Source of the DNA: a virus
Taxonomy: Duplodnaviria; Caudoviricetes
Reading direction: 5' to 3' (one strand)
Virus record (IMG/VR): IMGVR_UViG_3300047554_000702
Location: 1 to 58,348 of that record
DNA: 58,348 nucleotides
Below the pieces are notes generated by a model. It made no database searches, was not told the DNA's origin, and saw nothing but the letters and a program-made list of their open reading frames with translations. This document shows, in pieces, positions 1 through 58,348 of the stretch (position 1 is the stretch's first letter; each line of letters starts with the position of its first letter). The position numbers and the translations under genes were made by a program.

Positions 1-100
1 CCCTACGGCACCTGCCGAGCCCGCAGGATCGATCACGCTCGCCTGCCCTACGGCACCTGCCGAGCCCGCAGGATCGATCACGCTCGCCTGCCCTACGGCA
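1..100. repeat. 45-bp tandem repeat, left part (2 full units plus a partial)
   Basis: Unit CCCTACGGCACCTGCCGAGCCCGCAGGATCGATCACGCTCGCCTG at 1-45 and 46-90, partial at 91-100; the same unit recurs at the window end. Confidence 0.95.
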
Positions 101-233
101 ACTGGCAATCTAAGCCCCTTCGCGATGCGTGAAATGGCAGCTATTGCGACGCAATCGCAGAACAGAAACAGAACGACGCAACAAAATTACGCCTACATTT
201 GTAGATGTTGCGCTCAACGACCCGAAAATTGCT

Positions 234-336
234 TCAGGGGGGAAGCAATGCCACTCAGGGGGGAAGCAATGCCACTCAGGGGGGAAGCAATGCCACTCAG
301 GGGGGAAGCAATGCCACTCAGGGGGGAAGCAATGCC
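234..336. repeat. 21-bp tandem repeat x5 (iteron-like)
   Basis: TCAGGGGGGAAGCAATGCCAC starting at 234, 255, 276, 297 and 318 (last copy 19 bp). Confidence 0.95.
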
Positions 337-340
337 GCAA

Positions 341-369
341 TTGACGCAATGCAATTCGTGTGGTAAGTT
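341..369 (+). promoter_or_regulatory. sigma70-like promoter
   Basis: TTGACG-17 nt-TAAGTT upstream of SD AGGAG (384-388) and GTG at 399. Confidence 0.55.
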
Positions 370-398
370 TTCTTCAATTGAACAGGAGTGATTCGCAC

Positions 399-917
399 GT
401 GACCCAAGCAAATCTCATCACCAAATTCAACGCCTCGATCGTCCTAGACGTGCGCCGCGCTCGTGACACTTGGTGCGTCTATGAGCACCAGGTCGTCATG
501 CAACCAGGTGAACCACCCGAAACGATATTCATCGGCGCGTGCCGTGTGATCGATGTGTACGATATGGTTGATGCTCGATCGAACAGCGAATGGCAGAACA
601 TCTTTGCCAACGGTGGACAGGTGCTCATCAATATCATCGGCACGACGTTGAACCGTGTCGATGCAATGCGCACTGCGTCGGAAATGACCAAAACCGCACC
701 GGTTATCCCGCGCTGCAACCTTCTCGGACACAACCTGCGCAGTCAGCGTCGCCCGATCCTATGTCTGAACAACAACGTCCGATATGAAACACAGCTGCAC
801 GCATCGGCAGATCTTGGGATACACGCCAGTTCGATCAGCCGACACATGCGCGGTCAAGCGAGCCATGCCCAGGGCTACAAATTCATCTACGCTGTCGATC
901 GGAAGGACGAGGCATGA
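399..917 (+). CDS. degenerate GIY-YIG-like / NUMOD1-type DNA-binding protein (homing endonuclease-like)
   Basis: WCVYEH...IFIGA in the N-terminal part; C-terminal RRPILCLNNNVRYETQLHASADLGIHASSISRHMRG...GYKFIY resembles a NUMOD1/HTH domain; start chosen at the GTG after AGGAG. Confidence 0.55.
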   Translation: MTQANLITKFNASIVLDVRRARDTWCVYEHQVVMQPGEPPETIFIGACRVIDVYDMVDARSNSEWQNIFANGGQVLINIIGTTLNRVDAMRTASEMTKTAPVIPRCNLLGHNLRSQRRPILCLNNNVRYETQLHASADLGIHASSISRHMRGQASHAQGYKFIYAVDRKDEA

Positions 918-1222
918 CCACCCGCGAAGAACTCAAGGCACTGGCGGAGACTGTGCAGAAGCTGACGGGGCCGTGCCACGCAACCGATTGTGCGATTGAG
1001 CACATTGTTTGCCCGCGCTGGACTGGCGAGGGCGCTCCAAAGCCATACACCGCCTCACTCGACGCGGCCATGTCGCTGGCTGACGGTGGACGGGTTGTCG
1101 AGATATTGCTGAACGCGGTCAATGCGAACGGCCACGAACATGGATGGGTAGAAGCCTTGCCCCGCTACGTCACAGCCGCCGCCCTTCTCGCCCGCGCCGA
1201 ACAGATGGGAGAGGGGGCATGA
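914..1222 (+). CDS. hypothetical phage protein
   Basis: ATGA overlap with the upstream stop; GAGG SD; PYTASLDAAMSL motif of the kind seen in small phage proteins. Confidence 0.7.
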   Translation: MTTREELKALAETVQKLTGPCHATDCAIEHIVCPRWTGEGAPKPYTASLDAAMSLADGGRVVEILLNAVNANGHEHGWVEALPRYVTAAALLARAEQMGEGA

Positions 1223-1740
1223 GCGGGCGCGTTATCGAAGGCTATGCCGCCATCTTCAACATCCCCGACAAAGTGAACGACACTATTTTGCCGGGCGCGT
1301 TCAAGCGGACTTTGGGAGAAAGGAAGCCTGACTTTCGGCTTGATCATTTCGGCGGTTGCGCCGGTGAGATTATTGAGGCCCGCGAAGATGAAGAAGGGCT
1401 TTTCGTTAAAGCCCGACTTGATCGAGACGTGGGCGACATTGACGGCCTTAGCATTGGGTTTGTTGCTCAACGCACAAAGCGCGGCAAAAACTGGCGCAAA
1501 CTTTATGACGTTGATCTGATTGAAGTTAGCGTTTGCGCCGATCCCATCCATCCGCTTGCTCGTTTCAGGGACGCGCCCTCAATTGAACAAGACGACTTCG
1601 CGCCCCGTGATGCTGTGAAGGCGCTGGCGTGGGTAATCCTCGGGATTGTCGCTGGTTCCTACGCCCTTGCAGCGTGGGCATTGGCGGGATGGCCGAGCGT
1701 CTGGGCCTTTGCTGTGGAGGCGTTCCCATGCGCCTCGTGA
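1219..1740 (+). CDS. HK97-type prohead protease-like protein with C-terminal transmembrane helix
   Basis: IEGYAAIFN...DTILPGAF...LDH...EDEEGLFVKA...DGLSIGF...DLIEVSV...P matches peptidase S78 motifs with His and Ser present; hydrophobic tail LAWVILGIVAGSYALAAWALAGW. Confidence 0.8.
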   Translation: MSGRVIEGYAAIFNIPDKVNDTILPGAFKRTLGERKPDFRLDHFGGCAGEIIEAREDEEGLFVKARLDRDVGDIDGLSIGFVAQRTKRGKNWRKLYDVDLIEVSVCADPIHPLARFRDAPSIEQDDFAPRDAVKALAWVILGIVAGSYALAAWALAGWPSVWAFAVEAFPCAS

Positions 1741-1826
1741 CAGCCCTGCAATGCGTGACGGGCGGCGTCCTGATGCTGTTCCCGATATTCCTGCCGATGC
1801 TGGCGATGATTCTGAAGGAGATTTGA
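1728..1826 (+). CDS. small hydrophobic peptide
   Basis: MRLVTALQCVTGGVLMLFPIFLPMLAMILKEI; GGAGG SD upstream; fills the gap in the operon. Confidence 0.45.
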   Translation: MRLVTALQCVTGGVLMLFPIFLPMLAMILKEI

Positions 1827-1827
1827 T

Positions 1828-2292
1828 GTGAGAGGTTTTGCTTCAATTGGCCTGCATTGCCCGAAAACAGGGCACAACGTAGGAGCCGTTTTACGGGCCG
1901 CTCAATGCTATGGCGCAGCGGCGGTGGTAATCAGCGGCGAACGGGTCAACCGCACGCACATCAAGGCCGCGACCAATACCCTGCAATCCCACCGGCACAT
2001 TCCTGTGCTGCGTGGTGATCTGCGCGAGCTAGTGCCTTATGGTGCGGTGCCCGTCGCGGTCGATCTTGTCGAAGGCGCGGAAAGCCTGATTGACTTTGAG
2101 CATCCGCATTCGGCGTTTTACGTGTTCGGGCCTGAAGATGGAACGCTTGGCAAAGCTACGCTTGATTGGTGCCCTCGTCGCGTGATGGTACCTACTGCGT
2201 TTTGCATGAACCTTGCCGCTACCGTCAACGTCATTCTCTATGACCGCCTTGCCAAACAGCACCGGCGGGTTGCCGAAAGGATCGCAGCATGA
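1828..2292 (+). CDS. SpoU/TrmH-family (SPOUT) RNA methyltransferase
   Basis: SPOUT motifs: PKTGHNVGAVLRAA (motif 1), YVFGPEDGTL (motif 2), VMVPTAFCMNLAATVNVILY (motif 3). Confidence 0.85.
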   Translation: MRGFASIGLHCPKTGHNVGAVLRAAQCYGAAAVVISGERVNRTHIKAATNTLQSHRHIPVLRGDLRELVPYGAVPVAVDLVEGAESLIDFEHPHSAFYVFGPEDGTLGKATLDWCPRRVMVPTAFCMNLAATVNVILYDRLAKQHRRVAERIAA

Positions 2293-2990
2293 CCCACCCC
2301 GCCAGCGAACTGGACGCGGAAATCCAGAAGACCGAAGCCCGCCTCGCCGAATTGCAGGCCCAGCGGGAGGCGTTGGCAGTTGACCCGTTGCTGATTGAGG
2401 CGCGGGAGTTTGCTGCAAAGGCTTGCGAGGTTGAACAATTGTTTGGCACCGCAAAAGACATTCGTTCCGGGGGATTTGATTGCCTCCCGAGCGTTCAATC
2501 TGCCCTCGCAGCCCTTCGCAGCCGCACGGCCCTCGCCCCGCGCCCGGAGGTTGATGAGGGGTGGGTTGACGATGTGGCAAAGCGGTGCGCCGAGAATGCT
2601 GCCGCAGCTACCGGCAATCATCCCTTGAGCAATGCGGCTGCTGTTGCGTTCAATGCGCGCACCCTCGCCATCCGCGAGACCCTCACCCGCGCGCCGGGGA
2701 TAAGCTGGCCGGGGGGAAGGCCGCAAGAACACTGGACGGTTGTAGGCGCAATAAAAAGCGCAAGAGCCTTGATCGAGGCCGGTAACGACCTTTGTTTTGC
2801 TGCTGAAACTTCGGGCGGCACAGCGGGGCGTGACGCAGCCTTGTACGCAGCAATCGCGCAATGGGCAGCAGAGCGCGACAAACAAAAGCAGGTGCTGCGC
2901 ATCATTGAACTTGAAGGTGACAGTCCAGAGATAGGGGCAGGTTCGCCTGACCATCCTCTGCGCGAACACATGACGGGAGCCGCGTCATGA
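2289..2990 (+). CDS. hypothetical protein (N-terminal coiled coil)
   Basis: ATGA-coupled in the + operon; 233 aa. Confidence 0.65.
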   Translation: MTHPASELDAEIQKTEARLAELQAQREALAVDPLLIEAREFAAKACEVEQLFGTAKDIRSGGFDCLPSVQSALAALRSRTALAPRPEVDEGWVDDVAKRCAENAAAATGNHPLSNAAAVAFNARTLAIRETLTRAPGISWPGGRPQEHWTVVGAIKSARALIEAGNDLCFAAETSGGTAGRDAALYAAIAQWAAERDKQKQVLRIIELEGDSPEIGAGSPDHPLREHMTGAAS

Positions 2991-3352
2991 GCGCGCCCGA
3001 GCAGGTGCAGGTGAGCCGAGCGATTGAACTTTGGTTCTTCCGCGACATCAGCGACGAACAGCGCCGTGCCTTAATCGGTCTAACCTTGGGGGAAGCTGTG
3101 GCTGGCGAAGCGACAAACCATTCATGGCAGCGGCTTTGCTTGAAACGCATCCTACGCCACACCACGCAATCCGACCTGCTGGCGGCGATGCGGGAGGCGG
3201 CTGAGGCACTTAAGCCGTTTGCCTTTGCCGCAGCGCACGCACCCAAGATTGGTAAAAAGCCACACGACTTTGTGTTGACCAGCGAGTTCGACGCAGCCTC
3301 AGCAGCCCTCGCCAAGCTGACCGCCGCGATTGACCAGATGGGAGGCGGGTGA
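2987..3352 (+). CDS. hypothetical protein
   Basis: ATGA-coupled; GGGAG SD. Confidence 0.65.
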   Translation: MSAPEQVQVSRAIELWFFRDISDEQRRALIGLTLGEAVAGEATNHSWQRLCLKRILRHTTQSDLLAAMREAAEALKPFAFAAAHAPKIGKKPHDFVLTSEFDAASAALAKLTAAIDQMGGG

Positions 3353-3459
3353 TGCGGATCATAGTCAAGAAACTCACGCGAGAATTTTGGGACGGCTTCT
3401 TGAGCGGGTGGGCGGCGGCATTTCTGATTGCCTGCTTGATTGTGGGGCTGATCCCCTAA
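3352..3459 (+). CDS. small single-pass membrane protein
   Basis: My translation: MRIIVKKLTREFWDGFLSGWAAAFLIACLIVGLIP; TGATG coupling and GGAGG SD. Confidence 0.55.
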   Translation: MRIIVKKLTREFWDGFLSGWAAAFLIACLIVGLIP

Positions 3460-3499
3460 CCCCCGCGCACGAACCCGGTGCGCTGATATGGAGAATGTG

Positions 3500-3658
3500 A
3501 TGAACGAACATTGGAAGACATACGCCGCTGACTTCAACGCAATGACCGATGCGGAGATTGAGGCCGAAACCGAACGCGTGCAATCTGAAGTCAATGAACT
3601 CGAAGATTGGCTCGAAGCCGTCGCGTCATGGGAAGCCGCCGGGAAGCCGCGCGCATGA
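3500..3658 (+). CDS. small acidic helical protein
   Basis: My translation: MNEHWKTYAADFNAMTDAEIEAETERVQSEVNELEDWLEAVASWEAAGKPRA; GGAG SD. Confidence 0.6.
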   Translation: MNEHWKTYAADFNAMTDAEIEAETERVQSEVNELEDWLEAVASWEAAGKPRA

Positions 3659-3801
3659 CCGCCCGCTATCAGACCAGCCGCCCGGATCAGTGGACGTGTC
3701 CGCGCCCTACGCCTGATCCGCGCAAGTATGGCGCGATTATGCCTATGGAACAGCCCCGCCTCGGCCTGCTGCGTCGGGTGTTCGGGATATGGAGAACGTG
3801 A
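3655..3801 (+). CDS. hypothetical protein
   Basis: ATGA-coupled; MTARYQTSRPDQW...YGAIMPME. Confidence 0.55.
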   Translation: MTARYQTSRPDQWTCPRPTPDPRKYGAIMPMEQPRLGLLRRVFGIWRT

Positions 3802-4247
3802 TGGAAGAAGAACTTAAGGCGCTACTAGAAAAGGCGCGCAATCACAAGATGACACCCGGTGAACTGTTCGAGCAGCGCGTTTCATTCGTTTACAGTGCGT
3901 GCGGCGAAGGCGAGAGCAAGGAAAGCGTTCGCGCGCTATTGGCGGAAACTTACGGCGACCCGGCTGCATATGAAGCAGAGATCACCTCCCTTCGCGCCGA
4001 GATCGCCAGCCGTGACGCGGCACTGGTGAAGGCGCGGGAGGAACTGACAGAATGCGTGACCTCGCTGGATCGCCTCCAAAGCAATTCCGAAAAGCTACTT
4101 GTCGAAGCGCGTAGAGCGCGGGCTGATGCGTTGGAGGAAGCGGCGGTTGCTGGTTACATTGCCTGCGCTGAAACACGCCATGTTAGGCTAGGGGATAGAG
4201 TTGCCACCGCCATCCGCGCCCTCGCAACGCAGGGGGATGGGGCATGA
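3801..4247 (+). CDS. hypothetical coiled-coil protein
   Basis: TGATG coupling with GGAG SD; MEEELKALLEKAR...EQRVSFVYS. Confidence 0.65.
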   Translation: MEEELKALLEKARNHKMTPGELFEQRVSFVYSACGEGESKESVRALLAETYGDPAAYEAEITSLRAEIASRDAALVKAREELTECVTSLDRLQSNSEKLLVEARRARADALEEAAVAGYIACAETRHVRLGDRVATAIRALATQGDGA

Positions 4248-4528
4248 CGAATAGCATCGTCACCCGCGAACAAGTGATCGCCAAGATGCAGTTCTGGGCG
4301 GATCGCATAAACGAACAGAATGAATATGGTGCGCTCCATATCCTCATCGCGGACGGGAATTGCGATGATGAAAGCCGTGAATTTTGCCGCACCCGGCACA
4401 CCATAACCGCCGACGAAACAGCGTTTCTTGACGGGATCGAAGCCGACTTGACCGAAGAAGCCATTTTCGGAGCATGGGCGCTGGCACAGTATCCGAATAC
4501 CCAAGTTGCAACACAGCCCGAACCCTGA
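4244..4528 (+). CDS. hypothetical protein
   Basis: ATGA-coupled; GALHILIADGN motif. Confidence 0.65.
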   Translation: MTNSIVTREQVIAKMQFWADRINEQNEYGALHILIADGNCDDESREFCRTRHTITADETAFLDGIEADLTEEAIFGAWALAQYPNTQVATQPEP

Positions 4529-4718
4529 TAAACCCGCCGCATGTCAACAGCGCGCATCATTTCTGACATGCAGCAATCGAAGCAGGTTGTGCATATCGTG
4601 TCGGCCCGGACTGCTCGATCGCTCGTAAAGCGAGGGCTGGTTCGGGCCACTGTGATTCAACCTGCACCGATCGAAGGTGTTGCTGTCAACCTGACCGTGC
4701 TCGGCAAGTCGTACCGCG

Positions 4719-4862: not shown

Positions 4863-7179
4863 ATCCTTGATCCGTTCCGTACGTGCTGACATCTGCGACA
4901 GCTGCGCGCGAGTATAGCACCCCGCAAAGCGCAACGTCTTCCTGAAAATACGGCCTTAGTTGGCGACCGATCTCACGATAACCCATGCCTTCGAGCACGG
5001 CCCGGACGGCATGAGGCGGTACATTCCCGCGAACAACTTGCCGGTCGCGCAGATGCTTCATTGCTGCCAACTCGGACACCCATCCGGAGCGGAAGCCGGT
5101 GGCACCCGTCTCGACCGCTTCCTGGATGGCACGCTCGATCGGTGAGCGGCTGATTGCCACAGCCTCTGCCCAACTGGTCGTCCGAGGCGCGCGCATGGGT
5201 ATCGCGCCTTTGCCGATCGGATAATTGTGCAAGTAGTGCGAGATGTATTTGTGCCCGTCAGCTTCCAACCAACTGAACAAGCGCTTCATATAATCATCGT
5301 TCATGCCGAGCGCGAACAACATTTCCTCGGTCTGGATCGGGCTAAAGAACATCGCGTAGCGTCGCCCGTTTTTCGACACAGGTACCGCGTCTTTGTAGTT
5401 GGTGAAGAAACCCCAATTCGCAGGGTTGTCTTCCATCTGCTGATCGACACCCTTGGCCTGCACTTCGATCAACTTTTCGGAGATCAGCGGCTTGAGCACT
5501 TCGACCAGGTGACGCTTTTCATCGACGCGTATCTCGTCGGCCAGAATAAACACCTTGTTGCGCATCCACCCGTTGAACTTGCCGCCGCTGTCGCCCAACT
5601 GCTGCGCGTCCGGGAAGTGGACATACGGCAGTCCGATCGCCTGTGTCATAGCGTGCTTGATCACACCTTTGCCGATACCCTCAGCTGATTGGATCACCGG
5701 AGCCCATGGTATCTTGTAACCAGGATAACGAACCACGTGCGCCATCCAGTCGAGCAGGATGCGCAGATCGTTTTCATCGGGAATGATCAGGCGAAGGTGG
5801 TTCAAAAACGGGCTGACATCGCCCTGCAGCATCTCGATCTGTGGTCGGACGTAGGTGTTCACACCTTTACGACCCAGCACATCGGTTACGATCTCACCCG
5901 GCTCTCTGTCTGGCATGAATCGCAGGTGATCGACCTTTGGTACTGCCCATTGTGTCGATCGTGTAGCAGCGCGCCACGGTTCGTCGGTTGTCTTGCCGTC
6001 CGCTGTGATGATGAATTTCTTACCCGCGTAATGCGAACCGTTGAACTTGGTCGAGTCGTAAAGCTGACCGTTGGGTAGCAGCATCTTGCCCAGCGAACCG
6101 ACGAACACGCACCCCTTGAACCATTGCGCGCATTCGAGGTGGGTTAGCATCTCACCCCTGCAATCCAGTTCAGGCGGCTCGGTCTGACCCGCTGGCATGG
6201 GTGGTACACCCCCTGCGACCGGCGCAAGCGGCTGCGGTGACACACCCTCGCCGAATGCGACCACGGCCCGCAGGGACGGCACACGGCGTACCAGCGACGG
6301 CCAGCCCAACTCGGTACGGCGCAGGCTGTTCCACTGCTTGATGTTCTCGCCGATGTCGTTGCGCGTGTAGCGCGCGCACCAATTGGACCACATCGACACG
6401 AGGGTGGCTTCGTCGGTCAACGTCCAGCCCGCCTGCTTGATGGCAGCTGTCACAGCGATCCATTCGCCGCGATCGAGGTCGTTGGGGTCCATGAGATCCA
6501 GCGCACGCTTTAGCCATGCCAGCGACGGCGCGGCTTGGGCAGGGTCACCAAGTTCATGTCGCTCACCCGCACCACCTTCGAGCACCGTCACATGCGCTAC
6601 AGACGCTTCGAGTGCATCAACCGTGAGGGGTTGACCGTAACCGGGCAGCGCGTGGCAGGTGACCAAGTGACCAACCCCATACTTGTGATTGAGCGTGCCA
6701 GGGAGCCGCATGACGCGCGCTGCGTCGATCACGGCCTTGTCACCGTTGTAGGTCTGTCTGAGCCGCCGCTGAAGCCCTGAGAAGCGTTCCAGATCGGACG
6801 GGTAGTGCGTGACCGGCCAATAGACGTGATACTTGCCGGGGCTGCTCAGAACGGCAAACGAGGGCGGCGGCAGGTGCCGACCCGCTGCCTCGTATTGCTG
6901 CTGTGCATCAATGGCGTCGAGATCGATATAATGCGCGCGGATCATCGCCACGTTTTCGAGAGCCCGACCCACCCCGTCCAGAGCAGCGGGGGTCATGAAA
7001 ATGCCGTAGCCATGCTCGTTGTAGCCCTTGATCCACGGCCAGAGGCTGTGCAGGGTGCCGCGATTCGCATGGCCGGGGACGGATTTATCAGTGTCGTGAA
7101 GGGCGCGCAGATCGAGCGGTGTCGTGGCCGGATCGCAGCCGAGCGCTTGGACGAATGCTGTGGCGAGGTCGATGTTCAC
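4855..7179 (-). CDS. DNA primase-helicase (RepB-like primase + PriCT-2-like + P-loop ATPase, DUF5906-like)
   Basis: HYIDLD, SSPGKYHVYW and RVMRLPGT primase motifs; EWIAVTAAIK...WSNWC (PriCT-like); Walker A SAEGIGKG; Walker B ILADE; FFTN. Confidence 0.85.
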   Translation of the reverse strand: MNIDLATAFVQALGCDPATTPLDLRALHDTDKSVPGHANRGTLHSLWPWIKGYNEHGYGIFMTPAALDGVGRALENVAMIRAHYIDLDAIDAQQQYEAAGRHLPPPSFAVLSSPGKYHVYWPVTHYPSDLERFSGLQRRLRQTYNGDKAVIDAARVMRLPGTLNHKYGVGHLVTCHALPGYGQPLTVDALEASVAHVTVLEGGAGERHELGDPAQAAPSLAWLKRALDLMDPNDLDRGEWIAVTAAIKQAGWTLTDEATLVSMWSNWCARYTRNDIGENIKQWNSLRRTELGWPSLVRRVPSLRAVVAFGEGVSPQPLAPVAGGVPPMPAGQTEPPELDCRGEMLTHLECAQWFKGCVFVGSLGKMLLPNGQLYDSTKFNGSHYAGKKFIITADGKTTDEPWRAATRSTQWAVPKVDHLRFMPDREPGEIVTDVLGRKGVNTYVRPQIEMLQGDVSPFLNHLRLIIPDENDLRILLDWMAHVVRYPGYKIPWAPVIQSAEGIGKGVIKHAMTQAIGLPYVHFPDAQQLGDSGGKFNGWMRNKVFILADEIRVDEKRHLVEVLKPLISEKLIEVQAKGVDQQMEDNPANWGFFTNYKDAVPVSKNGRRYAMFFSPIQTEEMLFALGMNDDYMKRLFSWLEADGHKYISHYLHNYPIGKGAIPMRAPRTTSWAEAVAISRSPIERAIQEAVETGATGFRSGWVSELAAMKHLRDRQVVRGNVPPHAVRAVLEGMGYREIGRQLRPYFQEDVALCGVLYSRAAVADVSTYGTDQGYE

Positions 7180-7568
7180 TTTGAACCGCGATTGTACATG
7201 GTGTTCATCAAAGGTTTCTCGACTCGAATCGCTTCGCGTTCTGCTTCGATTGCTGCCGCTCTATTCGGTAGCGTCTCAATCGTAACAACGGCTATGTGTT
7301 GAAACCAAGGCGAGTGGATAGCGTGATCAACTAAGCGACGCCAAGCAGAATAAGAAAGACCAATGTACAGAAGGCGACCCTCTTTATCGTAATGACGATA
7401 CAATTGTGTCGGATCACTGTGACACTTGTTATTTCTGTGCCCAGCGTATCGCTTCTGCTTTTTTTGAAACTCAATGATGCAGGCTTTGCATCTAGGGAGT
7501 TCTTTTCGGTGAGTTTCATTGACCTTGCAATCACGACACATGCGGGGTGAATTCAACCACATCTTCAT
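7176..7568 (-). CDS. GIY-YIG family nuclease with N-terminal Cys motif
   Basis: LYRHYDKEGRLLYIGLS...RRLVDH...AEREAIRVEKPLMN; lower GC than its neighbours. Confidence 0.75.
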   Translation of the reverse strand: MKMWLNSPRMCRDCKVNETHRKELPRCKACIIEFQKKQKRYAGHRNNKCHSDPTQLYRHYDKEGRLLYIGLSYSAWRRLVDHAIHSPWFQHIAVVTIETLPNRAAAIEAEREAIRVEKPLMNTMYNRGSK

Positions 7569-7753
7569 GGTGTCGATTCTCCCACAAAACCCTCAACATC
7601 GATACGCCGCCACACGGGCGGTTCAATTCCAGCAATCGGTGAAACCGGACACACACCTTCTTTAACCCATTTTCTCAGGGTCTTAGGGTCTATTCCGAGG
7701 GCTCTTGCTGTTTCACCGCCGTTCATCAGCGGTTTGAGGGTTTTATCGGGCAT
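7565..7753 (-). CDS. MerR/excisionase-like HTH DNA-binding protein
   Basis: LMNGGETARALGIDPKTLRKWVKEG...WRRIDVE. Confidence 0.75.
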   Translation of the reverse strand: MPDKTLKPLMNGGETARALGIDPKTLRKWVKEGVCPVSPIAGIEPPVWRRIDVEGFVGESTP

Positions 7754-7847
7754 TTGGATGTGCATAATGAAGTCGCTCGCGGCTGACAACCCAAAATTTC
7801 CAGAAATTTCCCTTGACCCGAATCGGACGGGTGTGACAGGAGAACTC

Positions 7848-46449: not shown

Positions 46450-46790
46450 CTCTGTGGCCCGTCCTGTTTCCCGGTGGAGCCGTACCGATGTTTCGTGCCG
46501 TTAGGCGGCGAGACGATGTGCCATTGCTGGCTCGTTGTCGTTGACAGTTAAGTCTTCTGTGCCGTTGCGGTGGCCCAAGCCGGATCGCGCTCAATTTCGC
46601 TCCACACCGTCGATCCTAGTTCACGCCCATCAACTGCACCGGACAGCAACGCCTATCCGTTCTGTTCAGCGTATCACTCGGTCATAACCTCACGGGCCGA
46701 GCCGGTGCAAATGGTGGACGTGGCGGGTACTGCCCCCGCGTCCGGTGTTTCCCTACGTTGATCGAGTTACGATCATCGACAGACTATATG
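46450..46790 (-). ncRNA. ssrA: circularly permuted (two-piece, alphaproteobacterial-type) tmRNA
   Basis: Acceptor piece ends GCGGG-GGCAGTA-CCCGC-CACGTCC-ACCA (3' end 46712). Coding piece starts GGGCGTG-AACTAGGATCGAC (46628), giving a 7-bp acceptor stem with G3.U70. Tag frame 46545-46501 reads VNDNEPAMAHRLAA-stop. Outer ends are approximate. Confidence 0.93.
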
Positions 46791-46832
46791 TCCTCAATGC
46801 GTCCCTGCGGTCTGCCAGCGCCGCATTCGAAT

Positions 46833-46861
46833 CACCTAGAACAAGTGGTAAGTTTTGTCAA
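46833..46861 (-). promoter_or_regulatory. promoter upstream of the tmRNA
   Basis: TTGACA-17 nt-TAGGTG. Confidence 0.55.
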
Positions 46862-49337: not shown

Positions 49338-49375
49338 TGCACCGGTTTATCAGGCTGCACGGGGTGTTGCAAGTA

Positions 49376-50083: not shown

Positions 50084-51782
50084 ACGACCCGATCATAACC
50101 TCGCTGCCCTGTCGCGGTGCAGGGAAGTAGCACTGTACAACAGCATCCGCAATATTAGGGCTGCGAGCACCATTGGGTTTTTTATCCACGAGCATGCGAA
50201 GTGACGACGCGCTGCGAATACTGGTTGGCTGGGCCAACTCTTTCATCACTTGGTGTAGCGCCGGGATGTCACTGGCGATGCTTATCAACTCGTGACCCTC
50301 GTACAACTCACCCTGCGTCCGAGCACGCCACGTCTTGTAGAACCGGTTGCGGACGGACCACCACGCCTGCGCCTTGAAGTTGTGATAGAAATCGCGATTG
50401 AGAGGGCTGTTGTCGTCGCCCGGAATGACGCGCTCGAACTGCCGCTGCACCGCGCCGCCCGCGTTCCACGGAGTTAGCACGAACTCGTCGAAATCCACGG
50501 CACCCGACTCAACCAGCCGGTTGTACTCACTCTTGACCGCCGACCCGACACCGATGCTGTCGTACTGGATCTCGATGCCGCGCAGGTTGCGGTCGCGCAG
50601 ATCGCCGAGCATGTTCCGACACGCGACGCCTGGATCGCGCTCGCCCCAATCACGTGCATGGCGTAGGACGTAACCCTGCCGGATCGCTATGGCGTTCTTG
50701 TCCATACCTTCGTCGGCAACGTCGAGCCCCGCCATCCACTGCGTGCTGTCGGCGATTGCGGCCAGCGCCGGGATGTAAAGGTGCGCGTCAATGGCAGCAG
50801 TGATCCACTCGTAGGAGATGATCGTGTTCTCGACAGCGGCTGAATAGTTGCGATCGACTTCCTGTGCGAAGACGTGCTGCATCCCTTCACGCTCAGCCTT
50901 TGCCTTGCGCTGATCGTACCACTCCTGTGTCTTCTCAGGATGGTCACGCCAATCCATGATGAAGACGCGCGGTGTGCCTTTGGGGATCGAGACACCCGGT
51001 TGCCATATCTCACCCGACTCACGCCGACGATGGAACACATTGCCGAGCCCGTTCACGCTCGAAATATCGACTTGGACGTTGGTGTTGTCACCAAGTGCAG
51101 CTTCGATCAGTTCGGGTCGTTCGTAGTGCGCCGCTTCGTCCTTGAAGTAGATCGCCTTACGACCACCGCGACCGATGTTGTCACCGCTTTCACCTGCAAT
51201 GATTGCACCGTTCTCGGTGTTGATGATCTTCATCAGCGCAGTGTTCCAGAGAGGTCGGAACTCCGGTGGCAAGCGTCGAATTATCTGTCGCATCTTCTCG
51301 AAGATACTGTCGGCATCACCTAGCTTGTCCACCAAGTCCTGCTTGCGTGAACCCCAACCGATTGCGTCCTGTGAGATGTATCGCAGTCGCCAGACGCAGT
51401 AAGCACAGGCGAGCCACGTGGCACCCATGTCGCGCGCCTTCTCGATCAGACCGCTTTCATCCGTTTTGCGCAAATCCTCGAAGAAGTCGATCAGTGCCGC
51501 TTGCCGTGCGAAGAACACGAACGGCATCCACTTGTTCGTCTGTTTGCGGGGGTTGTAGGTGTCGCACCAGTCCTGTATGAACTGCGCAGGCCGTGTCGCA
51601 TAGTATGTGTGAGCCTCGCGCAGCAGTGTGCGATCTGATCGCAGTGATGTGAGTGTTTGCATCCGCCAAGCGTAGACTCGTCGATAATCAGGGGGCCATT
51701 GGTCGTGTGTCAGCGCGCGAGGACGCCAAGGTTTGACGACTTGCTCGGTTTGTGCGTTCGGTGGATTGAACAGGTCGATCAC
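50073..51782 (-). CDS. terL: terminase large subunit
   Basis: EKARDMGATW (Walker A variant), GRGGR, FKDEAAH, ISSVNG, GLDVADEG and SPNIADA. Confidence 0.92.
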   Translation of the reverse strand: MIDLFNPPNAQTEQVVKPWRPRALTHDQWPPDYRRVYAWRMQTLTSLRSDRTLLREAHTYYATRPAQFIQDWCDTYNPRKQTNKWMPFVFFARQAALIDFFEDLRKTDESGLIEKARDMGATWLACAYCVWRLRYISQDAIGWGSRKQDLVDKLGDADSIFEKMRQIIRRLPPEFRPLWNTALMKIINTENGAIIAGESGDNIGRGGRKAIYFKDEAAHYERPELIEAALGDNTNVQVDISSVNGLGNVFHRRRESGEIWQPGVSIPKGTPRVFIMDWRDHPEKTQEWYDQRKAKAEREGMQHVFAQEVDRNYSAAVENTIISYEWITAAIDAHLYIPALAAIADSTQWMAGLDVADEGMDKNAIAIRQGYVLRHARDWGERDPGVACRNMLGDLRDRNLRGIEIQYDSIGVGSAVKSEYNRLVESGAVDFDEFVLTPWNAGGAVQRQFERVIPGDDNSPLNRDFYHNFKAQAWWSVRNRFYKTWRARTQGELYEGHELISIASDIPALHQVMKELAQPTSIRSASSLRMLVDKKPNGARSPNIADAVVQCYFPAPRQGSEVMIGSYGG

Positions 51783-52845: not shown

Positions 52846-53226
52846 TCATGGGTTGGGGGTCAAGGTATACCGCGCACCGGCCTGACGACCTTTGCCTTCA
52901 TTGGTGTTGCGGACGGCGTATCCCAGCTTGCGCAGCGCCTGTACGTCGCTGACCACTGTGTGCCAAGGCCACGGTGGTCCTGCGCCTTCGCGGACTGTGC
53001 CAGAGCGCAGCATATCGAGCAACACGGCACGTCGCGCTGTAGCCGGTGGGATCGAAGCGGGCCGGGGTGGGATATACGGTTGCTTGACTGGTCCGTGCCT
53101 GACGGGTGGGTCGGACGGCAGGGGTATGTCGGTCGTTGCGCTCAGGATCTCACGCAGCAGCCGGTGCGCCCCGATGCTGTAGGGCAGGGACAGGGCGTGG
53201 GTCACTGTGTCGCGGTTGGGGGTCAT
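52846..53226 (-). CDS. winged-helix-like hypothetical protein
   Basis: LLDMLRSG...VVSDVQALRKLGYAV...YTL. Confidence 0.55.
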   Translation of the reverse strand: MTPNRDTVTHALSLPYSIGAHRLLREILSATTDIPLPSDPPVRHGPVKQPYIPPRPASIPPATARRAVLLDMLRSGTVREGAGPPWPWHTVVSDVQALRKLGYAVRNTNEGKGRQAGARYTLTPNP

Positions 53227-53873
53227 CCCACTGCATCCTTTATCATCTTATACCCCTTGTCTGGTGGGTGCCTTTGCAGCAAGTTAATCACTGTGCTGTG
53301 ATCCTTGCGCCCGATCAGACGTGCAACTGTGCCGAGCGCAACACCGCGCTCTCGCAAAACACGTGCGACAGCTGCGCGCGCCCGAACCGCAGGAGCGTAG
53401 CGGGTCACTCCGAACACCATGCGCGGTGTGACGCGGTAATGTGGTGCAACGAGCCGCACCATCTCTCGCGCACCCATGTAGCCATCCGGTACATAATCCG
53501 GTGCATCTGCTGCGTATTTGTACCCGAACCACTCGTAAGCGCATCGGACGGTTTCCTCACTTAGACACAGGGCTCGTGCGGTTGTCTTGATCGGCGCTCC
53601 GGTCTGCCATGCTGCTTGTAAGTCGGCCTGATGCGGCCAGCGTTGTCTGACCGGGACGGGTGTGGCGCGGCTGGGTGTGTGACCCCGGCGCATTCCGTTC
53701 GGTAGCCGCAAGCGCAGCTTTTCACAGCGCGCAGACACTGCATCGGGTGTGCGATTGCCGAGCCGGTGCGCGATCTCAAGTGCGGACAGACCAAGCGTAC
53801 AACGCATGTGTGTCAATTGCTCGATTTCATCGTCTGTCCATGGTCGGTTCACGTATCGTCTCCGGTCAGCCAA
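53223..53873 (-). CDS. GcrA-like HTH fused to a DnaA domain IV-like HTH
   Basis: PWTDDEIEQL...GLSALEIAHRLGNRTPDAV...LRL; C-terminal RAR..AR.LR...VARLIGRKDHSTVI. Confidence 0.7.
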   Translation of the reverse strand: MADRRRYVNRPWTDDEIEQLTHMRCTLGLSALEIAHRLGNRTPDAVSARCEKLRLRLPNGMRRGHTPSRATPVPVRQRWPHQADLQAAWQTGAPIKTTARALCLSEETVRCAYEWFGYKYAADAPDYVPDGYMGAREMVRLVAPHYRVTPRMVFGVTRYAPAVRARAAVARVLRERGVALGTVARLIGRKDHSTVINLLQRHPPDKGYKMIKDAVG

Positions 53874-53922: not shown

Positions 53923-54264
53923 TCACCGTCCCATCTCCTGTGCCAGATCGGTGATTGCTCGGTACACCCGTGCGTCGTTCATGGTGCGCAGCGGCCAGAG
54001 CCGTCCGACCAGTCGAAGCAACAGTACGCACGCTGCCCTGCGCAACTCACCAATCAGTGTGTCACGTGTGGGTGGTGACCGCAGCATTACCGTGGCTGGC
54101 TGTATCGCTCGCTGCAGAGCCTGTTGCGGTGTGTTATCGACCCAGCAGGTGACACGCTTGTCGCGCTCGTCGAATCCTTCGCACCTCCATGCGTTAGGGA
54201 CGGGTTTACCTGCATCGACCGCTTCGGGGTGCATCTCAATCGTGTATCGAATGGTGCGGGTCAT
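53923..54264 (-). CDS. hypothetical protein
   Basis: GAGGTG SD; first ORF of the leftward operon. Confidence 0.55.
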   Translation of the reverse strand: MTRTIRYTIEMHPEAVDAGKPVPNAWRCEGFDERDKRVTCWVDNTPQQALQRAIQPATVMLRSPPTRDTLIGELRRAACVLLLRLVGRLWPLRTMNDARVYRAITDLAQEMGR

Positions 54265-54784
54265 GCTTCACCTCTCAGTTTTTCGCCGCGCAGGGCCGAC
54301 TGCACGTCGTTTCGGTGATCCCATGCGCCAGCGAGAACTTCGCGAGCGAACACGATGTGTCCGTCGGCCTTCGCGAGATTTGCTACACGACTGCGCGCCT
54401 GCTCGATTGGTGTCACTCTACGATCTCCTGTGTCTGTGAGTCGATCCCTACCACACGGTAAGTTTTATTCAACCGAAAAATGTGCGGGGTGCCGGTGCGG
54501 ATTTCGAGGGGGTATACCCATTCTGACCAACCGGTTAGTTTTTGATTTTCGGTTCGTGTGGAAAATTTGTGTGGCGGTCATTCGCAACAATATTACGGGG
54601 TGGGGGGGGGGTCCACGCAACAATATTGCGCAAACCGGCCAACTCATTGATTTTGTTAGGGTTTATCGTGTGGCCTGTGGCGCGCCGATAATTATCGCTG
54701 ATCCACGTGCACCGGTCGCGCCAGGTCGAGCATCGTCACAGGTCGAGCGTCGCCGATGATTATCGGCCAAACGTCACGCGATTA

Positions 54785-55090
54785 ACGTCATTGCGCAATC
54801 TTTTCACATTCGGCACGAAAACCGCAATGTAGCGATTGCGCAATAAGTTGCCACAGGAAATGTTGCGATTGCGTTTAATGCTCATTGTGGGGACTGTTTA
54901 ATGTGTAATTGAGAAACAACATTCTAAACGGGGACATAAACGGTTTACTTTGCAATCTGACAATCGCAACTATGACAAACCCACAAGCAACAAACGAACC
55001 ACATGAACCATGGCGACGCAACTTTAGCATAGAATTGCGTTTTCGCACAGAAAACAAAATCCGCAATGTGAAAAGATTGCGCAATCACGT
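54785..55090. repeat. 26-bp inverted repeats flanking an AT-rich core
   Basis: ACGTCATTGCGCAATCTTTTCACATT (54785-54810) versus AATGTGAAAAGATTGCGCAATCACGT (55065-55090); one mismatch. Confidence 0.85.
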
Positions 55091-55185
55091 CAGGGCAAAC
55101 CATAATTATCGATATTTCACTTGATAAACGTCATGATTTAGCGAATAACAGTCCTACGGCGAATCACCGCCCTGGAGCGTAACAC

Positions 55186-55482
55186 ATGGCCCACCTGCTA
55201 GAAGTTAGACCACATGGCGCAAATTCCACTTTGGGCGCGCTTCCCGCAAATTCTTTGCGCGAAGCTGAGAACTTGCATCGCATTTTCGGGGGCTCAATTG
55301 TGAGCCCTTCCACGGGTATCGATTACACACCTTACACCGGCCCACTGTATAATCGTCATGGCCGCGAATATGCCGACGCTATCGCCCGCGCAGCTGATGC
55401 GCGCCGTCCGTTGAGCACGGCCTCAATTGCAGCACAGCAATCCGCTGCTTGGCAGATCCACGGCGCAAGGGCGGCACTGTGA
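55186..55482 (+). CDS. early hypothetical protein
   Basis: GGAGCGTAAC leader motif before the ATG. Confidence 0.6.
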   Translation: MAHLLEVRPHGANSTLGALPANSLREAENLHRIFGGSIVSPSTGIDYTPYTGPLYNRHGREYADAIARAADARRPLSTASIAAQQSAAWQIHGARAAL

Positions 55483-55676
55483 AACGCGTCACACTGGCAC
55501 TAGCCGCGCTCGCAACGCTTGCGCTGCAGGTCACACATGGCCCGCGCCTGATAGGCTATCACTGCAGCGACGCGCCTAGCATCGCCGGGATCACATACAC
55601 CGGACCGCGCCTGGCACGCGAGGAATCGGATTTTATCGGCACATGCGCTGAGATAGCGCCAATTTTTGGAGAGTAA
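55479..55676 (+). CDS. early hypothetical protein with hydrophobic N-terminus
   Basis: GTGA-coupled; VKRVTLALAALATLAL. Confidence 0.55.
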   Translation: MKRVTLALAALATLALQVTHGPRLIGYHCSDAPSIAGITYTGPRLAREESDFIGTCAEIAPIFGE

Positions 55677-55680
55677 CCAT

Positions 55681-55989
55681 ATGGCTTACACAGTGACGAC
55701 ATTTGACGATAGCGCGGACGGGATGGAGCGCTTGCGCAATCAATCCGAATTTATCTTGCTGGCATATCCCGCAAGCGATTCAACGCCTGACGACGTGCTG
55801 CAGCAATTCATTGACGACATCCAATCGTGTGACCGATTCGACGGTTTCGACTATGACGCGGCGCGCGCTGCAGTGAATGAATGGTACGACTCGGACATGC
55901 TCGCACGCGTCCTGCAGTCGACCGAATGGCCCGATGACGACGAGTCAGAATGGTGGCCCACATTTCGCCTTTATGTTGAATCGGAGTAA
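55681..55989 (+). CDS. early acidic hypothetical protein
   Basis: GGAGAGTAAC motif; Asp/Glu-rich. Confidence 0.7.
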   Translation: MAYTVTTFDDSADGMERLRNQSEFILLAYPASDSTPDDVLQQFIDDIQSCDRFDGFDYDAARAAVNEWYDSDMLARVLQSTEWPDDDESEWWPTFRLYVESE

Positions 55990-55995
55990 CCGCAC

Positions 55996-56535
55996 ATGAC
56001 ACAGATATTCAGCACGGGATTCGGTCCATACACCTTCCCCGGCGACACAATCACCGCAGAGCGCGACGGGTTCACCATTACCGCCACTGTGCACGCTGAC
56101 TCGCACCACGGCGCACCATGGGAAGAATGCGACGGGCACGGACCTGTCAGTGACTGGCGCAATTATAACTACAGAGGATATTACAATAAGCGCCCTGGTG
56201 AATTACTCCTATGCGAGGATCACGGGCGCGCACGCTTCTATGACTTCAAAGAGGCTTGCCGCATCGCATTGCGTGACGGTTGGGGATTCTTGCCGCATCC
56301 CCTGACAATTGAGCGCGATACACCAAGCAATGGTGATTACACGGCTTGCGGTGGTTGGGCGCGTGCTGGCGATTTTTCGGCTTACGATCCGCAAAATTTC
56401 AATCGCGCTGAATTCACGCGCTGTAATTGGTCAAAAGACTGGCACGGTTCACACTGTGACACCTATTTTTCAGGTGTGTTAGTTAGTTTAGCAAGTGACG
56501 GTGAATCCGTAACCGTAGGGAGATTCTATTCGTGA
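55996..56535 (+). CDS. early hypothetical protein
   Basis: GGAGTAAC motif; PWEECDGHGPVSDW...KRPGE...RDGWG. Confidence 0.7.
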   Translation: MTQIFSTGFGPYTFPGDTITAERDGFTITATVHADSHHGAPWEECDGHGPVSDWRNYNYRGYYNKRPGELLLCEDHGRARFYDFKEACRIALRDGWGFLPHPLTIERDTPSNGDYTACGGWARAGDFSAYDPQNFNRAEFTRCNWSKDWHGSHCDTYFSGVLVSLASDGESVTVGRFYS

Positions 56536-56747
56536 CACTAATCGCAAAAGCCCTCGCATCACCCTACACCGCCATGACGTTTCGCACCCTGGCACGTCAC
56601 CGCGACTCAGCGCGCGGATTAGACACAACTGCAGCATTGCGATTGCTGAAGCGCAATGTTAGAGATGTATCACCGCACGCGAGTCGCGCGTTGCAATGGA
56701 GCATTGCGCGACAAATGCTTGCACACTGGCAGGAGAGTAACACATGA
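56532..56747 (+). CDS. early hypothetical protein
   Basis: GTGA/ATGA-coupled. Confidence 0.55.
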   Translation: MTLIAKALASPYTAMTFRTLARHRDSARGLDTTAALRLLKRNVRDVSPHASRALQWSIARQMLAHWQESNT

Positions 56748-56986
56748 CAAGCACATATATAGGCACACTTCGCAATGTGGAGCGCTTGCCTAGCAGTCGA
56801 AACGGCAACCCGCGTTATGCTGCATTGATTGTCACAGACTCGGGTGCAATCCTTCAGGTCCGGACTGCAGTCGACTCGTCACTCGGTTACAGTTTCACTA
56901 ATCACCGTGAAGGTTCGCGCGTTAGAGTCACTGTATCACTGCAGCGCGGCTATTGGGTCATTCAGCATATGGAGCAAGCGGCATGA
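56744..56986 (+). CDS. early hypothetical protein
   Basis: GGAGAGTAAC motif; ERLPSSRNGNPRY...T.VDSSLGY. Confidence 0.7.
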   Translation: MTSTYIGTLRNVERLPSSRNGNPRYAALIVTDSGAILQVRTAVDSSLGYSFTNHREGSRVRVTVSLQRGYWVIQHMEQAA

Positions 56987-57165
56987 AACCACACTAAGCG
57001 ATAAAGAGCGCGAACGTATATGCGCTCAATGGTTCGACATGCTGGCAATGCATCTCACGCGCGCATGGCGCAAACAGGGTCTGTACCCTGAAATTTAGTG
57101 TCACCCGCGTTGCGGTATGGTCAGAGCGTGCCGCAATCGGTTAACATTGAAATGGAGAGTAACCT

Positions 57166-57810
57166 ATGACAAACGACACTCAGACTCGCACCGCATCAAT
57201 CCCCTTCAGCGGCTTTTACGAATCGTCGCATGATGCGGCACTAGATCAAGCGCTTGAACAAATGTTCAGCGACGACTCAGGGTGCGAGCGCACGCCTAGC
57301 TATGACATTGCCAGCGATGCAATCGACTGGCGCGCCGCACACCTTGCCTATGCGCAAGAATACGCCAAGAATCTCGCACTTGAGACTGAATCAACTTGGC
57401 AATTTGCTAAGTTGGATTCACCGCGCTTCTATAACTATCGCACTAATGAAATTGACGTAACGCTGAGCCTGTCCGAATTGCAGCGCATGCGCGACTATGT
57501 TGCAGCTGAGCACGAGTCGGCATGGCTTGAATTGTGCCGCGACCGACTCACCGCGCGTGACGGATTCATTCCGTTCTATGACAGCAATCCTTACACATGG
57601 GGCACGCTTGACACTTGGGAATCGCCGCAACTGTCCCTGCTAGTCGAATGCTACGTAGTGGCGAAACTCGGCGAGACTGAATCAGATGTGCAATGGTGGC
57701 TCAATTATGAATGTGTTGAAGATTGCAACGGTGACATCACTAGGTGCATTGAAAGCGCGATTCCGCAAGCCGCATGGGACAAAATTAACGCAATGGAGAA
57801 CGTGGCATGA
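57166..57810 (+). CDS. early acidic hypothetical protein
   Basis: GGAGAGTAAC motif; IPFSGFYES...LDSPRFYNYRT...RDGFIPFY. Confidence 0.75.
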   Translation: MTNDTQTRTASIPFSGFYESSHDAALDQALEQMFSDDSGCERTPSYDIASDAIDWRAAHLAYAQEYAKNLALETESTWQFAKLDSPRFYNYRTNEIDVTLSLSELQRMRDYVAAEHESAWLELCRDRLTARDGFIPFYDSNPYTWGTLDTWESPQLSLLVECYVVAKLGETESDVQWWLNYECVEDCNGDITRCIESAIPQAAWDKINAMENVA

Positions 57811-57998
57811 GTCGCCGCGCAGATCGTGAAGGCGTCCCGCGCATTCGTTATCTAGATTGGCCGCAACCAGCGCATTGCAGTCTGGCCAAGCGTGACGGGT
57901 TAGGCGCGTTTCGCAGATGTGGCATGTTTGACGCGTGTCGCGCCTATCTGAGAGACTTGCGAGCGTATCGCTTGCGCCACACGGAGCAACAGGCATGA
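57807..57998 (+). CDS. early hypothetical protein
   Basis: ATGA-coupled; GGAG SD. Confidence 0.5.
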   Translation: MSRRADREGVPRIRYLDWPQPAHCSLAKRDGLGAFRRCGMFDACRAYLRDLRAYRLRHTEQQA

Positions 57999-58150
57999 CA
58001 CATTGGACACAAGCGGAACGCGATCTAGCAATTAGTGGCCGGGTATACTTTCGGTACATCTGCGAACCGGATATGCGCCGCAAGGTTTGTCGCGATCTTG
58101 ACAGCGTAAAAAGCGGTCACGGCGCACTTGTTTTCGACTGGCCAGACTAA
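57995..58150 (+). CDS. early hypothetical protein
   Basis: ATGA-coupled; MTHWTQAERDL...; GGAG SD. Confidence 0.5.
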   Translation: MTHWTQAERDLAISGRVYFRYICEPDMRRKVCRDLDSVKSGHGALVFDWPD

Positions 58151-58183
58151 CCCCCCCCCCCCTACATATCCGCGCCGAGTAAC

Positions 58184-58221
58184 TAGCGCCGCGTCCTATA
58201 CGGATTGCGGCGCTATTTTTT
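58184..58221 (+). terminator. intrinsic terminator closing the early region
   Basis: TAGCGCCGC...GCGGCGCTA followed by TTTTTT. Confidence 0.75.
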
Positions 58222-58261
58222 CAGCATGGAGCACGTGTAACAGCATGAACCATTAGCGCCG

Positions 58262-58348
58262 CCCTACGGCACCTGCCGAGCCCGCAGGATCGATCACGCT
58301 CGCCTGCCCTACGGCAACTGCCGAGCCCGCAGGATCGATCACGCTCGC
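58262..58348. repeat. 45-bp tandem repeat, right part
   Basis: Same unit as 1-90: a full copy at 58262-58306 and a truncated variant at 58307-58348. Confidence 0.95.

Follow-up and report, generated by a model that had tools for sequence, protein, structure and literature searches.

In Alphaproteobacteria, methylation by CcrM serves as the central epigenetic clock of the cell cycle. Methylation state is also sensed at clusters of the Dam word GATC, namely at E. coli oriC with SeqA, at the pac site of phage P1 and at the mom promoter of phage Mu. Enterobacterial phages avoid the word of the host methyltransferase, as T7 does with GATC, and we know of no local enrichment island in these GATC-avoiding phages. 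The CcrM word, GANTC, is reported to be under-represented in the coding DNA of CcrM-bearing Alphaproteobacteria (PMC3973325, PMC8725594), and its methylated form is described as being bound by GcrA, which works with sigma-70 (PMC4647560, PMC3667746). How phages handle CcrM methylation has barely been studied. Published accounts describe GANTC methyltransferases as frequent in phages of alphaproteobacterial hosts (PMC5537653, PMC7139368), GcrA homologues in phiCbK-like phages (PMC3556154), and GANTC depletion in around half the genomes of pelagiphages, which splits lineages and is left unexplained (PMC9516812). Here we describe a 2.2-kb island of GANTC sites in the genome of a tailed phage which is otherwise poor in this word. 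The genome is the IMG/VR record IMGVR_UViG_3300047554_000702 (Duplodnaviria; Caudoviricetes), and its full length of 58,348 bp was analysed and is called the window below. Our literature search, which did not cover subscription journals, yielded no account of a phage with a local GANTC island.

As in the GATC clusters, the word of an orphan methyltransferase is concentrated in what may be a functional element, and the P1 cluster also lies inside a gene. However, the GATC clusters cover 100-250 bp, have phased or fixed sites and known readers, whereas the field in the window and its relatives covers 2-3 kb, is unphased and turns over. Outside the island the window shows the same genome-wide counter-selection of a host orphan-methyltransferase word as T7 and its like show for GATC. 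With the sigma-70 promoters of the Caulobacter crescentus GcrA/CcrM system the window has in common the five-base word, a probably alphaproteobacterial setting, the likely writer (host CcrM) (PMC4647560, PMC3667746) and, by a weak match, a GcrA-domain protein encoded next door. The Caulobacter promoters are, however, described with one or two sites at fixed positions in the context YGAKTCK (PMC4647560), while the window has 29 randomly placed intragenic sites. The pelagiphages are alike in a GANTC density that divides lineages and in purging of the word, which is also found in sister lineages of the window; the available account of them treats depletion only (PMC9516812), and the window adds a local enrichment inside a depleted genome. 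The GANTC methyltransferases reported from alphaproteobacterial phages (PMC5537653, PMC7139368) indicate that phages of such hosts engage the CcrM mark. The window lacks such a gene, and a relative described below (G003) has a beta-class enzyme to which no specificity is assigned.

A first-pass annotation, made from manual counts, had put about 29 GANTC sites here, with all four central bases and in several open reading frames (ORFs), against about 8 expected, in a genome otherwise poor in the word. The exact count by regular expression is 29 sites in 55623-57809, with A, T, C and G as the central base (+ strand) in 8, 8, 8 and 5 cases. All of them lie within + strand ORFs, seven in number, which hold 1, 5, 5, 2, 3, 12 and 1 sites along the island (55623..57813; 13.2 sites per kb). 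The expected number was close to the estimate as well: the mononucleotide expectation is 8.5 sites, which gives an observed/expected ratio (O/E) of 3.42, and dinucleotide-preserving shuffles gave 8.1±2.6 sites with a maximum of 19 (n=2000). The remaining 56,152 bp contain 76 sites (1.35 per kb, O/E 0.37), and the two comparison counts of the annotation were exact, with one site (1808) in 914-4528 and two (34778 and 35982) in the tape-measure gene 34036-36705. When all 105 genomic sites were placed uniformly, at most 17 fell into any 2,196-bp segment in 20,000 trials, and the Poisson tail for at least 29 island sites is 5e-16. The G+C content is 52.9% in the island and 58.4% in the rest of the genome.

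The annotation had also proposed an amino-acid-preserving shuffle as a check, and the enrichment persisted in it. With the seven island ORFs pooled and codons drawn from the local pool, the excess remained when the proteins were kept and only the codons were shuffled: the shuffles gave 17.1±2.8 sites and none of 5000 reached 29. A rerun with greedy ORF calls reached 29 once in 2000 shuffles, and when the island was recoded with the codon frequencies found outside it, 15.7±2.9 sites resulted, with a maximum of 27 (n=3000). The genes outside the island behaved in the opposite way, with 51 sites against 102±7.6 under the same synonymous shuffle (41,631 nt of crude, heuristic gene calls). About half of the excess can thus be put down to protein composition, and what remains to the choice of codons and context. 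Since the shuffles are exceeded inside the island and undershot outside it, codon choice pushes in opposite directions in the two parts of the genome.

The contribution of the proteins is itself unusual. Asp/Glu-Ser codon pairs make up 17 of the 29 sites, and these dipeptides occur 22 times in the island proteins against 8.3 expected, 17 of the 22 (77%) being written as GANTC. In the rest of the genome there are 81 against 90.8 expected, with 22 of the 81 (27%) written in this way. The share of TCN among serine codons is similar in the two parts (59% in the island, 56% elsewhere). Of 25 island pairs in which Arg or Gly precedes Phe, Leu, Ile or Val, 7 have the coding xGA-NTC, compared with 10 of 488 elsewhere. 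The island protein with the most sites (ORF 57166-57810) has 4.21 Asp/Glu-Ser dipeptides per 100 aa, three times the value of its family (1.42±0.93), and one of its sites needs a serine that occurs in none of 79 aligned relatives, most of which have Ile, Leu or Val. Selection for GANTC runs counter to codon preference and, in places, to the protein sequence.

The word itself is specific. Among all XXNXX words GANTC has the highest ratio of island density to density in the rest, 9.7-fold, with the runner-up at 2.9, and both GAWTC and GASTC are enriched, among the top pentamers. Of the 16 palindromic XXNXX words only GANTC clearly exceeds the synonymous shuffles (z 4.27, next 2.42). Flank bias is limited to a purine after the site, which is explained by the TCR codons of serine. 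The recognised unit is thus palindromic GANTC with any central base and no extra specificity. The even use of the central base is what recognition of double-stranded DNA would produce; a motif at the RNA level was ruled out by the same symmetry. Spacing is random, with a coefficient of variation of 0.99 over 138 gaps in the window and its relatives and with no helical period, and helical phasing or regular spacing of the sites was rejected on this ground. What is under selection is the regional number of bare GANTC words in double-stranded DNA, and neither their positions nor their spacing are conserved. Over the 2.2 kb of its body, the rightward early block forms a field of CcrM/HinfI-type sites with no extended motif, and the field extends from just inside a divergent control region to tandem arrays at the record junction.

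We searched for islands in the upstream DNA of 80 terminase-related IMG/VR loci. In the closest loci with enough upstream DNA, an island lies 2.2-7 kb upstream of the large terminase gene and on the opposite strand, with 29 sites in 3.3 kb in L009 (81% terminase identity), 34 in 3.1 kb in L011 (76%) and 15 in 2.1 kb in L015 (63%). The 214-aa island protein led to a further locus, L005 (74% identity), whose first 2.4 kb hold 36 sites, with 8 more in the 4.8 kb that follow. L009 belongs to a complete record of 51,804 bp, G003, in which 93 sites stand against an expectation of 191; the stretch 48202-51546 accounts for 29 of the 93. Synonymous shuffles, with greedy longest-ORF calls as ORF sets, gave z values of 5.3 for L005, 4.8 for L009/G003, 4.9 for L011 and 2.1 for L015. 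The comparison with relatives that the annotation had asked for yielded four islands at the same map position. Their genes are mostly not common to the four. The window shares two of its nine + strand ORFs across 55186-58150 with G003 and none of the nine with L015, and alignment of homologue pairs, with 38 sites of the window and 31 of the relatives, gave only 12 sites in common.

Islands are not universal in the group. In L014 (64%) and L022 (59%) a long stretch of upstream DNA is free of any island, and an alignment-based scan added L101 and L102, again with no upstream island, although L101 has only 1.2 kb of upstream DNA. A scan of viral contigs with the single protein of ORF 360-917 gave nothing. 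For Curvibacter phage PCA1 and Pseudomonas phage P3_CHA, the DNA that holds the homologous early genes has O/E 0.74 and 0.95. Since the enrichment recurs over mostly unrelated genes in four relatives, survives the shuffles, is specific for one word and is lacking in the non-alphaproteobacterial homologues, selection at the DNA level is the sole reading that fits, and the suggestion of the annotation that this DNA is marked on purpose is supported.

Elsewhere in the family the word has been lost altogether. GANTC is absent from 14 of the 80 loci (L019-L021, L023-L026, L035, L053, L063, L065, L068, L071 and L077), and five further loci have one or two sites. The Rhizobium phages P106B and RHph_X2_24 of the genus Rigallicvirus (NC_023566.1, MW960031.1; L001-L004) are purged completely or almost so, with 0 sites against 218 expected and 4 against 217 over the whole genomes. 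HMSP1-Susan (O/E 0.38 over the first 50,000 of 51,963 bp) and RHph_I65 (O/E 0.16 over the first 50,000 of 54,511 bp) are depleted and have no island, so that none of these four cultured phages carries one. In this family GANTC is either purged entirely or purged everywhere but in one early block. Such opposite selection on one word within one genome argues for a mark that is read in cis, and restriction avoidance alone is insufficient to explain it.

With a rated completeness of 100% and a classification as linear, the window covers an entire virus record. Since both record ends fall within the same 45-nt tandem array, the map is circular and the break came from the assembly. The genome has a tailed-phage gene set, with small and large terminase, portal, capsid, tape measure, primase, helicase and polymerase. 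The closest cultured relatives of the large terminase (58-59% identity) are those of Rhizobium phages vB_RglS_P106B and RHph_X2_24, with which the replication and structural genes are mostly shared at 40-60%. A search of the DNA of 54000-58348 against the phage collection gave no match. The host is probably an alphaproteobacterium, as the annotation had supposed, because four lines of evidence point that way. The structural module contains a full-length permuted transfer-messenger RNA (tmRNA) gene of the alphaproteobacterial type (46453-46855, - strand; RF01849, 97.5 bits, E 2e-25), for which ARAGORN gave no call. The nearest cultured terminase relatives have Rhizobium and Sinorhizobium as hosts, and five of seven prophage relatives of the terminase are in Alphaproteobacteria. 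GANTC O/E in the alphaproteobacterial prophages is 0.27-0.71, while those of Marinobacter and of a Zixibacteria metagenome-assembled genome have 0.89 and 1.11, and the background depletion of the window (0.37) is therefore host-like. On these host-lineage markers the host would be expected to have CcrM, which is a trait of Alphaproteobacteria outside the Rickettsiales and Magnetococcales.

The window phage appears to have no DNA adenine methyltransferase of its own: a six-frame search for PF01555 (N6_N4), PF02086 (D12) and PF05869 (T1-type Dam) gave no match, and the [ND]PP[YFW] catalytic motif occurs in no real ORF of the window. G003, however, encodes a 234-aa beta-class adenine methyltransferase with a DPPY motif in its replication module (L088 9060-9764, - strand), between homologues of the window genes 10602-10988 and 11269-12978. 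The corresponding place in the window has an unrelated 97-aa ORF and no remnant of the enzyme.

As for a reader, the annotation had pointed to a GcrA-like gene just across the control region. The gene, a 216-aa ORF at 53223..53873 (- strand), does lie in the leftward operon that diverges from the control region, but two small ORFs intervene and the match is weak (Pfam 25.7 bits with a cut-off of 26.9, E 1.7e-5; PDB 5yiu E 0.13). The likeness covers a GcrA-type N-terminal DNA-binding domain and stops short of the part that binds sigma-70, the C-terminal position being taken by a DnaA-C-type helix-turn-helix. No homologue was found by tblastn against phages, and a near-length search of a 5.8-billion-protein set returned only a 100%-identical entry, apparently the protein itself. 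L008 shares its C-terminal half only. PF07750 (GcrA family) occurs in 5 of 40 related records and is missing from the complete, island-bearing G003. The ORF is thus a candidate reader only, and it is not conserved with the island.

On its left the island is preceded by the divergent control region (54417..55185), which is richer in A+T and has repeated TTGCGCAAT-type palindromes, a 26-nt inverted repeat (arms 54785-54810 and 55065-55090) and a G10 run. In a comparison with four of the five public runs listed, all four consisting of contigs, this region was about 93% identical in two wastewater runs, where the block behind it differs from the window island. In an independent freshwater-sediment run, parts of the island recur on contigs without a single difference, which rules out faulty assembly as the source of the island sequence. 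On its right, two small site-free ORFs follow, and about 450 bp from the island end a 45-nt tandem array begins (58257..58348, continuing in 1-104; at least 4.4 copies across the record junction), which forms the distal border of the island block. The array region (1..336) also holds a perfect 21-nt array of 4.9 copies (234-336) and is iteron-like. G003 has arrays of 39 nt (5 copies) and 21 nt (5.1 copies) at the same place past its island; in L005 different arrays stand about 840 bp past the island, and L011 has none within the locus. The arrays may be an origin, a packaging signal or an entry signal.

Past the arrays and on the same strand lies the GANTC-poorest gene block (337..4600, + strand). 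Only two sites (390 and 1808) occur in 57816-58348 and 1-4600 together, about 5.1 kb. A secondary GANTC cluster of 5 sites stands upstream of the primase gene (7062..7820) and is matched in G003 (4789-5788, 8 sites in 1 kb) and L101 (5408-6062, 9 sites in 650 bp), which hints at a cis role near control regions. Close pairs of GANTC, 5-9 bp apart, also occur outside the island, at 7221/7226, 13422/13428, 50005/50014 and 52698/52707; one pair precedes the primase start by about 45 bp, and another falls in the 5' part of the small terminase gene.

How could such a field work? The explanation that we rank first, tentatively and with somewhat less than an even chance of being right, is that the CcrM sites form a cis-acting field and that the early operon is tuned by their methylation state. 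Host CcrM would write N6-methyladenine on the GANTC sites of the island, and the field would work in cis as an epigenetic label by which the early block differs from all other phage DNA. A factor that binds methylated GANTC, with the host sigma-70 cofactor GcrA as the leading candidate, would be concentrated on the block. It would tell the methylated infecting genome, or a CcrM-positive stage of the cell cycle, from unmethylated new copies. The early genes would then have the advantage when infection begins and lose it when replication gets ahead of methylation.

Several observations weigh against this explanation. To our knowledge, no described reader integrates dozens of randomly spaced intragenic sites. 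The known GcrA mechanism acts at promoters, and all 29 sites of the island are inside ORFs, in gene bodies, which does not fit the geometry of GcrA promoters. The control region holds only two GANTC sites (54438 and 55161), and promoter and terminator scans of 54000-58348 gave nothing above shuffle expectation. Neither is a -10/-35-like element present at a fixed offset within ±45 nt of the 142 pooled island sites. YGAKTCK, which is described as the GcrA word of Caulobacter (PMC4647560) and may differ for the GcrA of another host, makes up 47 of 143 island sites (33%) and 55 of 132 outside sites (42%) in five phages. The four mechanisms offered by the annotation (recruitment of GcrA and RNA polymerase, sensing of the host cell-cycle state, titration of CcrM or GcrA, and a self methylation signature) are all conjectural, and the predictions specific to GcrA failed in these three respects. 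Methylation of the island, binding of a reader and early expression are all inferred from sequence. The description of the block as early or, in the words of the annotation, first-expressed is taken from gene order and orientation and is therefore provisional. Moreover, the writer may differ between lineages, given the methyltransferase of G003. An extended motif or internal promoters around the sites were rejected on the YGAKTCK counts and the offset scan.

A broader form of the cis-acting field is that several unrelated lineages of alphaproteobacterial phages use a kb-scale, coding-embedded CcrM field as an epigenetic label which replication erases. We consider this doubtful. Only a methylated infecting chromosome, or DNA that enters a CcrM-positive stage, would be read as early, and unmethylated progeny copies would lose this status automatically. 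If this were true, the phages would have built a developmental timer from the cell-cycle methylation system of the host, and the reader would integrate many intragenic sites, which neither GcrA nor any other protein is known to do. Should the reader of the island be found, it would uncover a new way for phages to sense or exploit the cell-cycle state of the host, and the scarcity of GANTC long seen in coding DNA might be explained as well. Other genomes are easily searched for such islands by local O/E and a shuffling test.

The field could instead act in trans, as a sponge that titrates host CcrM (or GcrA) as the phage multiplies and so disturbs host cell-cycle genes that depend on methylation, to the benefit of the phage. 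Selection on the number of sites and not on their position would suit a titration device, as would a recognised unit that is the bare CcrM word with no extended motif and a phage that seems to lack a methyltransferase. We nevertheless hold it to be rather unlikely. Sites spread over the whole genome would work better, and titration leaves unexplained why the other 56 kb are depleted (51 against 102±7.6). Furthermore, 29 sites per copy are few beside the roughly 11,000 reported for an Ensifer genome (PMC8725594) and the 4,542 for Caulobacter (PMC4647560). The sharp borders at the control region and the arrays also point to a cis role. One such role would be at replication, with the island flanking an origin made of the iteron-like arrays and coupling initiation or re-initiation to methylation state. 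GATC clusters at E. coli oriC and GANTC sites at the Caulobacter origin are precedents. The arrays that stand about 450 bp past the island and their counterparts at the same place in G003 are in favour of it, together with the second small cluster by the primase gene in three genomes and the DnaA-C-type helix-turn-helix in the neighbouring ORF 53223-53873. The field is, however, 2-3 kb of coding DNA and not a compact origin, its sites are neither helically phased nor paired, the arrays differ in L005 and are missing in L011, and they are themselves only a putative origin. We regard an origin-linked cluster as fairly improbable.

Restriction offers another source of the pattern: a host enzyme of the HinfI type would cause the shortage of sites, and the island would be a tolerated or exploited breakage zone that promotes recombination and the exchange of early (counter-defence) genes. 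The purged sisters (0/218 in P106B, 4/217 in RHph_X2_24) and the 14 of 80 related loci with no GANTC bear the classic mark of restriction avoidance, and no other part of the genome is as mosaic as the island block. Avoidance is seen outside the island and in the sisters, but it is contradicted by the island O/E of 3.4. An enrichment above expectation cannot come from avoidance, because a cluster of 29 cleavable sites would be lethal where the enzyme is present. The depletion (O/E 0.37) is no stronger than in alphaproteobacterial prophages (0.27-0.71), and a GANTC-specific nuclease turned up in none of the analyses made, so we think this explanation very unlikely. We see just as little prospect for a reader encoded by the phage, in which the product of ORF 53223-53873 would coat the methylated block and switch the early genes off, while the rest of the genome avoids the word to escape silencing. 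The GcrA-like N-terminus, the helix-turn-helix in place of the sigma-70-binding part and the position of the gene in the operon that diverges from the same control region would suit it. Against it stand the match below the Pfam cut-off, the lack of any homologue beyond the apparent self-match, with none in the phage collection, and the poor distribution of PF07750, which is not in G003, while L008 shares only the C-terminal half. Finally, the island might have no function and have arisen only because the early proteins are acidic and rich in serine, because G+C is lower here, or because the block was recently imported from a donor without GANTC avoidance. In its favour are the 17 of 29 sites that are Asp/Glu-Ser codon pairs, the 52.9% G+C (58.4% elsewhere) and homologues of island genes in beta- and gammaproteobacterial phages. 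We give it next to no credence, since it is already contradicted: an artefact of composition or import is excluded by the synonymous shuffles (17.1±2.8 against 29) and by the non-alphaproteobacterial homologues, whose GANTC density is ordinary. The Asp/Glu-Ser excess is unusual for the family of ORF 57166-57810, the same excess lies over unrelated genes in four relatives, and mere absence of avoidance would give an O/E of about 1 and not 3.4.

The genes of the island are tightly coupled + strand ORFs from 55449 to 57810, whose bodies the island occupies. Pfam and NCBIfam scans placed none of the island ORFs in a family, and three of the nine + strand ORFs across 55186-58150 have PHROG matches, all of unknown function. 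The first ORF with a site (55449..55676, 75 aa, 1 site) has no family match. It overlaps a very acidic ORF (55666..55989, 107 aa, 5 sites) that is 56% identical to an ORF in L011 and gave no usable match in a protein-atlas search. The next (55996..56535, 179 aa, 5 sites) matches phrog_11104, and its homologues in Pseudomonas PAK_P3-like phages are not enriched in GANTC. The start of the following ORF (56532..56747, 71 aa, 2 sites) overlaps the upstream stop, and homologues are found in L005, L009 and L011. It is followed by an 80-aa ORF (56744..56986, 3 sites) that matches phrog_20597. The 214-aa ORF (57166..57810, 12 sites) is a member of a large protein family to which neither function nor fold is assigned; the family has 1483 representatives at E ≤ 0.001, and F14, G16, Y89 and G133 are invariant. 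Its AlphaFold model has a pLDDT of 95, Foldseek against the PDB gave nothing at E ≤ 0.001, and the best hit in the wide VIA-align search (Z 4.6 over 53 residues) is no match to a solved structure. A small ORF (57807..57998) carries the last site, at 57809, and marks the island end.

Elsewhere in the genome, a gene of the GIY-YIG/NUMOD3 homing-endonuclease type (49376-50083, - strand) stands between portal and large terminase and is absent in G003, P106B and RHph_X2_24. Three + strand ORFs with a homologue in neither G003 nor the Rigallicvirus phages, coding for an Nmad5 domain (nucleotide-modification-associated) protein (14920-15504), a SpoU-type RNA methylase (1828-2292) and a stray prohead-protease-like product (1144-1740), lie in the early/replication region.

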